From Escherichia coli (GTDB lineage: Bacteria; Pseudomonadota; Gammaproteobacteria; Enterobacterales; Enterobacteriaceae): 64,000 nt of DNA. The stretch lies in assembly GCF_003334785.1 (NCBI RefSeq), contig NZ_QOWV01000002.1; one strand, 5' to 3'. Shown here piece after piece: positions 11,119-11,305 of the stretch. The position numbers and the translations under genes are program-made. The notes beneath the pieces were generated by a model that saw only the letters and a program-made list of their open reading frames with translations, was not told the origin of the DNA and did no database searches. Position 1 is the first letter of the stretch; each line of letters opens with the position of its first letter.

Positions 11119-11266
11119 GGGCTCCTTTTAGTTGCAAAGGTTGTGCTGAATCAAGATGAAAAGAGGCAACTTATTGCTCTGAATATAGTGCGTAAGGAGA
11201 TGAATAAATATCAAAAATCGCTCAATATGCCTGTGTGGGTGGATATATGTAGCGCGGGTTGCGATA

Positions 11267-11291
11267 ACAGGGCAAGTTTCGCCCTGTTTTT
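11267..11291 (+). terminator. Rho-independent terminator-like hairpin in elaD-rbn spacer (best on plus strand; may serve rbn bidirectionally)
   Basis: acagggc-aagtttc-gccctgt followed by TTTTT on plus strand; on minus strand followed only by UUAU. Confidence 0.35.
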
Positions 11292-11305
11292 AATAATAAG
11301 CAGAG

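Follow-up and report, generated by a model that had tools for sequence, protein, structure and literature searches.

A stem-loop in the rbn-elaD spacer of Escherichia coli as a probable 3′-end element of the rbn transcript

AT-rich foreign DNA is prone to spurious intragenic promoters, and antisense transcription is pervasive in AT-rich, horizontally acquired genes, where it is suppressed by Rho. Dar and Sorek 2018 (PMC6061677) described Rho-dependent 3′ ends that lie just past stable stem-loops without a U-tract, with rut sites right beyond them, and proposed that exonucleases trim the Rho-dependent messages back to the stem. Mixed cases, i.e., inefficient intrinsic termination backed by Rho, were also described, and an upstream A-tract was found to be typical of intrinsic terminators and not of Rho-dependent termini. 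In addition, E. coli has many terminators that work in both directions (Ju et al. 2019, as cited in bioRxiv 10.1101/2022.10.23.513370).

The spacer between elaD and rbn in E. coli carries a stem-loop that resembles the termini of Dar and Sorek 2018 in several features: the stem is stable, the U-tract on the rbn strand is poor, the mapped end lies a few nucleotides past the stem, C-rich sequence comes next, and a region sensitive to bicyclomycin (BCM) is found beyond it. It differs from their Rho-dependent termini in that an A-tract precedes the rbn hairpin, and the role of exonucleases at rbn is presumptive. An earlier note on this DNA had drawn attention to the hairpin, given that its T-run lies on the plus strand and both flanking genes on the minus strand; the note took it for the rbn terminator acting bidirectionally, and allowed for a small plus-strand transcript. 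Here we propose that the hairpin is probably the 3′-end element of the rbn transcript, at which weak intrinsic termination, Rho-dependent termination and trimming are combined, and that no separate plus-strand gene is present.

The spacer and its stem-loop

The window, i.e., the whole 64,000-nt stretch of DNA that was analysed, is 100% identical to E. coli K-12 derivatives across positions 10900-11500. Because the window is the reverse complement of MG1655, its plus strand is the minus strand of MG1655, and coordinates were converted as MG1655 position = 2393831 - window position, on the basis of the RefSeq entries for rbn (2381608..2382525 +) and elaD (2382713..2383924 +). The gene calls place yfbK on the plus strand (8110..9837), followed by elaD on the minus strand (9908..11118), the 187-bp rbn-elaD spacer (11119..11305) and the coding sequence of rbn, which encodes ribonuclease BN and is also on the minus strand (11306..12223), with its message ending at the hairpin; elaA and elaB lie beyond rbn on the plus strand. 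The gene calls and NC_000913.3 agree that elaD and rbn are both minus-strand genes, as had been noted before, and the MG1655 RefSeq record (NC_000913.3) has no feature annotated inside the spacer. The two genes differ in composition, with a GC content of 34-38% in the AT-rich elaD vs 50-53% in rbn.

In the window elaD is frameshifted (A8 to A7 near 10393): one A has been lost from the A8 run at 10386-10393 relative to MG1655, and single-base differences from MG1655 are found at 10106 and 10093. Of eight other strains retrieved, four have their elaD marked 'frameshifted' in RefSeq. Hence, elaD seems prone to frequent decay.

The stem-loop spans 11266..11288. As plus-strand RNA it has an 8-bp stem and a 7-nt loop, made of the left arm AACAGGGC (11266-11273), the loop AAGTTTC (11274-11280) and the right arm GCCCTGTT (11281-11288); as minus-strand RNA, with G-U pairs, it has a 10-bp stem and a 3-nt loop. 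The T5 run (11287..11291, plus strand), directly followed by AATAATAA, reads as the U-tract of a canonical terminator on the plus strand; on the rbn strand it forms the A-tract ahead of the hairpin. The range of 11267..11291 that had been assigned to the hairpin with its plus-strand T-run was essentially correct, with the stem starting at 11266 and the T5 run ending at 11291.

The hairpin at 11266-11288 was not reported by a standard terminator scan of the window, likely because the scan extends stems as far as possible and so takes two of the Ts into the stem. A stricter scan, in which both strands were searched for perfect stems (6 bp or longer, 4 or more G-C pairs) that enclose a 3-8 nt loop and are followed by T5, returned 2-3 sites in the entire 64 kb, with the spacer hairpin among them. 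Dinucleotide shuffles of the window contained 0.2 such motifs per 128 kb, and a fraction of 5e-5 of the shuffles of the spacer alone yielded one. The spacer hairpin is real, and far from a chance match. It is present in one copy in the window, and in a median of one place per genome across E. coli genomes. When the spacers of nine diverse elaD-carrying strains (95.5-100% identical) were aligned, the hairpin and the T-run showed no variation in any of the nine; this invariance may be taken as weak evidence for selection, the chance expectation for a 27-nt stretch without a variable column being an estimated ~15%.

The two strands were then compared as terminators, with tails scored by a d'Aubenton-Carafa-type measure and ranked as percentiles against the window positions. 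The plus-strand RNA folds with a dG of -9.7 (core) to -12.3 kcal/mol and has the features of an intrinsic terminator, CAGGGC-N7-GCCCTG and then TTTTT; its tail, TTTTTAATAATAAGC, scored 4.77, which is above the 99th percentile and equals two reference terminators in the window (4.7-4.8). The stem of the minus-strand RNA starts 18 nt past the rbn stop codon and folds with a dG of -11.0 to -13.6 kcal/mol (z = -3.85); the tract that follows it, UUAUCGCA, has a marginal tail score of 3.29 (~95th percentile), as compared with 4.7-4.8 for the reference terminators. The minus-strand RNA forms the more stable stem-loop of the two, and, judged by sequence alone, the canonical orientation of the intrinsic terminator is the plus one. 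The likeness to a canonical intrinsic terminator lies in the G+C-rich 6-8 bp stem, the short loop and the T5 run abutting the stem on the plus strand; however, the good T-tract is on a strand that has neither a gene nor a mapped 3′ end, and the mapped end is on a strand that has UUAUCG only.

The 3′ end of the rbn message

The tables of Bar et al. 2023 (PMC10687069) contain a 3′ terminus of rbn, of the class 'Primary', on the plus strand of MG1655 at 2382564-2382573, with its peak at 2382568 in their Supplementary Data 2 and at 2382571 in their Supplementary Data 3. These peaks correspond to 11260..11263 on the minus strand of the window, i.e., 3-6 nt past the stem. The sequence listed for the terminus is UUUAACUCUGCUUAUUAUUAAAAACAGGGCGAAACUUGCCCUGUUAUCGCAA, with the same stem-loop fold (dG -14.6), and the rbn 3′ UTR is given as 47 nt in Supplementary Data 4 of that work. 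The earlier note's assignment of the hairpin to the end of rbn therefore holds, since the 'Primary' rbn terminus in these tables carries exactly this stem-loop. Among the rows listed in the curated Term-seq set of Adams et al. 2021 (PMC7815308) there is no 3′ end at the hairpin on either strand, so that the rbn 3′ end comes from one study (two data sets).

Immediately downstream of the hairpin on the minus strand, a C-rich, G-poor stretch (11226..11265; 16 C and 5 G per 40 nt) looks like a Rho-utilisation site. The BCM-sensitive regions of Adams et al. 2021 were derived from RNA 3′-end counts in 800-nt windows, and their Supplementary file 2 contains one such region on the rbn strand, centred at 11189 (MG1655 2382642 +). 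The listed counts upstream/downstream of this position were 57/31 in untreated cells and 46/81 with BCM, with a Rho score of 3.2. Hence the downstream/upstream ratio of 3′ ends changed from 0.54 to 1.76 with BCM, at the coarse resolution of the 800-nt windows. The termination of rbn does not appear to be independent of Rho, as this BCM-sensitive region lies ~75 nt downstream of the hairpin (at 800-nt resolution).

The poor U-tract, an end 3-6 nt past the stem, the 40 C-rich nucleotides, the Rho-sensitive region ~75 nt further on and the picture drawn by Dar and Sorek 2018 all argue that the hairpin acts as the 3′-end element of rbn. On the minus strand, RNA polymerase coming out of rbn would transcribe the stem-loop, and a minority of the complexes would probably terminate intrinsically at this point, because the tract that follows is only UUAUCG. 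The remaining complexes would enter the C-rich, G-poor stretch, where Rho would load and bring them to a stop within ~75-100 nt; a BCM-sensitive region is seen there, and loading of Rho is the presumed mechanism. The 3′-to-5′ exonucleases would then trim the message back to the stable stem, which would leave the steady-state end at its observed position 3-6 nt past it. We infer from these data how rbn termination is shared between the intrinsic and the Rho-dependent route. On the rbn strand the T5 run of the plus strand is the A-tract that precedes the hairpin, so the canonical plus-strand terminator may be a by-product. Against an element that serves rbn purely, it has to be said that intrinsic termination is better encoded in the plus orientation (T5, tail score of 4.77), which such an element would not need.

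That the rbn message ends at this hairpin is an ordinary finding, and one already contained in a published data set; there is, therefore, nothing new in kind here. The locus neatly illustrates the general rule that a hairpin may be used on one strand and yet look more like a textbook terminator on the other. An mRNA can also end at a stem-loop whose U-tract is poor, provided that Rho and exonucleases complete the process. When genomes are annotated, a terminator that points along the plus strand beside minus-strand genes is not by itself evidence of a hidden gene.

The spacer also takes part in a proposal about the start of elaD. In the genomic SELEX of Shimada et al. 2014, the RNA polymerase sigma-70 holoenzyme binds the rbn-elaD spacer, and TTAAAA-18-TGTTAT was proposed as the elaD promoter, which is a pattern match made by those authors and not a mapped start site. 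This match straddles the hairpin on the minus strand (11293-11288 and 11269-11264). The proposed promoter would thus use the hairpin as its spacer, and its start would fall almost at the end of the rbn mRNA; elaD might be transcribed from it, or by read-through from rbn.

Antisense transcription towards the hairpin

On the plus strand, Supplementary file 2 of Adams et al. 2021 (PMC7815308) lists a BCM-sensitive region of an antisense-elaD RNA, centred at 11067 (MG1655 2382764 -), with upstream/downstream counts of 274/21 in untreated cells and 503/139 with BCM (Rho score of 3.6; p = 7.6e-9). This RNA covers the 5′ part of elaD, and in untreated cells its 3′ ends drop ~13-fold near 11067, i.e., ~220 nt before the T-run. 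With bicyclomycin, 139 vs 21 ends were counted in the 800 nt that contain the hairpin, which amounts to 28% of the upstream count, although a pile-up at the hairpin is beyond the resolution of an 800-nt window. Two sigma-70-like sites inside elaD in the antisense orientation, TTGTCA-17-AATAGT (10740-10768) and TAAACA-18-GATAAT (10846-10875), are candidate origins of the RNA; they are pattern matches only, and the number found is not above shuffle expectation.

The plus-strand RNA fits ordinary spurious transcription from foreign AT-rich DNA. As in the Rho-suppressed antisense transcription of AT-rich acquired genes, the gene has a low GC content (34-38%) and a BCM-sensitive antisense RNA ends near its 5′ end; the difference is that the elaD antisense RNA stops before the spacer in untreated cells, and alone it does not explain the hairpin.

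An alternative to an element that serves rbn alone is a working bidirectional terminator, in which selection would keep the T-run in order to stop plus-strand transcription, either antisense to elaD or initiated in the spacer, and would in this way shield rbn from antisense interference and from polymerase collisions. The canonical stem with T5 on the plus strand and its tail score of 4.77, vs 3.29 on the minus strand, make action in both directions plausible by sequence. The plus-strand RNA over the 5′ part of elaD, with 274 3′ ends counted over the 800 nt that lead up to 11067 and a BCM-induced rise from 21 to 139 in the 800 nt containing the hairpin, the AT-rich and foreign-looking nature of elaD, and the frequency of bidirectional terminators in E. 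coli are all consistent with it. However, no plus-strand 3′ end at 11292-11298, nor a minus-strand end of MG1655 at 238253x-238255x, is found among the rows listed in Bar et al. 2023 and Adams et al. 2021, in a region of low expression, and the neighbouring rows listed in Bar et al. 2023 (PMC10687069) contain no minus-strand terminus of MG1655 in 2380678-2389989. Furthermore, the antisense RNA of untreated cells ends ~220 nt short of the hairpin, and the flanking genes are co-directional and not convergent. Compared with the bidirectional terminators of Ju et al. 2019 (via bioRxiv 10.1101/2022.10.23.513370), the likeness is that one hairpin is usable on both strands and that the rbn mRNA and the antisense-elaD RNA converge on it; the difference is that the annotated neighbours are co-directional and that the data sets listed document a 3′ end for just one of the strands. 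Accordingly, the hairpin does not qualify as a bidirectional terminator placed between convergent units. That part of the earlier note which had the hairpin acting in both directions is plausible as far as the sequence goes, and the plus-strand end that it implies does not appear among the listed rows; we regard selection for the T-run on the plus strand as doubtful.

If the hairpin is the 3′-end element of rbn, its plus-strand terminator, which is well suited to the task, may nevertheless back-stop the little antisense-elaD transcription that escapes Rho. Were Rho limiting, or the silencing of the elaD region lost, plus-strand transcripts antisense to elaD or initiated in the spacer could run on to 11292-11298 and be released there, so that one stem-loop would be both the 3′ end of rbn and an insulator of rbn from a foreign AT-rich gene, and its sequence might have been salvaged from a lost cheV. 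We consider this scenario as a whole unlikely. If the back-stop role were true, it would be one more case of terminators fencing off spurious transcription from horizontally acquired DNA.

Origin of the spacer and the short plus-strand frame

The spacer and elaD are found together in 4497 of 5426 complete E. coli genomes. Another 915 of the 5426 are of a B2-type that lacks elaD, with yfbK and rbn convergent over a 120-bp spacer that contains a REP-like palindrome, and the similarity between the B2-type and K-12 stops exactly at the rbn stop codon. The two E. coli haplotypes are sharply distinct, and rbn itself shares only ~92-94% identity across them, an unusually high divergence for a core gene.

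Between the convergent yfbK and elaD there is a separate, perfect 14-bp hairpin (9858..9891; dG about -26 kcal/mol), the T-tails of which are poor on either strand. E. albertii is likewise without elaD, and its single yfbK/rbn hairpin is homologous to the K-12 hairpin at 9858-9891 (p = 0.002) and not to the rbn-elaD spacer (p = 0.09). This homology suggests that elaD was inserted between that hairpin and rbn. The T-run is not the orphaned yfbK terminator of an ancestral convergent yfbK/rbn pair, a reading that was rejected because the E. albertii hairpin matches 9858-9891 instead. The B2-type spacer is REP-like and unrelated. Searches for the origin of the spacer were of no help: near-identical E. 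coli proteins alone were matched by the ElaD protein, and misfiled chromosomal pieces and the distant SseL were the sole matches in the plasmid search.

A different origin can be proposed from the gene order of relatives. In 27 enterobacterial loci, from Citrobacter, Enterobacter, Kosakonia and relatives, cheV comes directly after rbn in the same orientation, and the convergent nuoN lies beyond it. The hairpin could be a remnant of the 5′ part of the cheV coding sequence, a gene lost in Escherichia, with the fragment kept as the 3′ stem-loop of rbn; this reading concerns origin only and is compatible with the other explanations. The cheV codons ~9-17 read ACAGGGCGAATCT[T/G]ACCCTGT, to be compared with ACAGGGCGAAACTTGCCCTGT on the rbn strand of K-12. 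The match is 19/21 identical to Kosakonia, in the same orientation and in roughly the same place, and nhmmer gave E = 8e-4 against three Escherichia spacers. However, the match is only 28 nt long, with 5.9 bits in the sense orientation vs 3.2 bits in the reverse one, which also scores because the sequence is palindromic; E was 0.17 when the entire rbn-to-nuoN interval was searched, and no other cheV remnants were found. Furthermore, the spacers of E. albertii and of the B2-type are without the hairpin, and the -10 element of the cheV promoter, GCCGATAACAG, gives a short match of the same quality in the reverse orientation. The hairpin as a recycled cheV fragment is a weak lead, and we hold such a descent to be rather unlikely.

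In the same 27 loci, cheV is preceded by a sigma-28-type GCCGATAA element. A FliA (sigma-28) genomic SELEX peak has been reported inside E. coli rbn (U00096.2 position 2379830), though E. coli is without cheV. A sigma-28 promoter reading of GCGATAAC was rejected, as no -35 match accompanies it and the sole FliA SELEX peak is the one inside rbn, far from the spacer. The plus-strand terminator of nuoN (3809-3827), CCGCCG-N7-CGGCGG and then TTTTT, has kept its position from Enterobacter to E. coli, despite the replacement of all the sequence that separates it from rbn.

The other proposal of the earlier note was that an AAGGAG motif abutting an ATG opens a short frame through the hairpin. Both the motif (11194-11199) and the ATG (11200-11202) are present, ~5 nt away from the quoted 11199..11207, and the frame does run through the hairpin: it comprises 38 codons on the plus strand (11200..11316) and reaches the antisense of the last rbn codons. 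In O157:H7 strain 86-24, codon 13 is changed from TGG to the nonsense codon TGA, and the nine-strain alignment contains one synonymous vs seven non-synonymous variants, those outside codon 13 being M10I, V14G, S18G, I32V and I33V/G. The Shine-Dalgarno motif AAGGAG is GAGGAG or GCGGAG in some strains, and its spacing to the ATG is zero, where ~5-9 nt would be workable. The Rfam search gave no family match in the spacer at E <= 1, and elsewhere a meaningless snoRNA match only. Given the stop in O157:H7, the excess of non-synonymous variants, the varying, zero-spaced Shine-Dalgarno motif, and the lack of an MG1655 annotation and of an Rfam match, we judge the 38-codon ORF to be non-coding.

A promoter scan detected no promoter-like site and no -35 element in the spacer on either strand, and the supplements of the TERMITe, Cappable-seq and SMRT-Cappable-seq studies have no entry for the locus among the rows listed; in the spacer we thus found neither a promoter, nor a discrete transcript, nor a described family of the kind that would mark a small RNA. 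An independent small plus-strand gene, i.e., a ~95-nt RNA between a weak -10-like TATAGT (11184-11189) and the T-run, in cis-antisense to the elaD leader, or an mRNA for a 38-residue peptide, could point to the AAGGAG before the ATG at 11200, to a frame that ends beyond the terminator, to the TATAGT ~10 nt upstream of the ATG and to the binding of the sigma-70 holoenzyme in genomic SELEX (in which the strand is not resolved), but with the interrupted and varying frame, no -35 element, and no plus-strand 3′ end among the rows listed it is very improbable.

The spacer has also been a target of insertion. In at least three unrelated strains an IS1 lies at or beside the hairpin, namely B2C (junction at 11253), STS63-2-E (junction at 11282, inside the stem) and X14-3, and two of these three also carry a deletion of elaD and more. 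The rbn-elaD spacer may be an IS1 hot spot.
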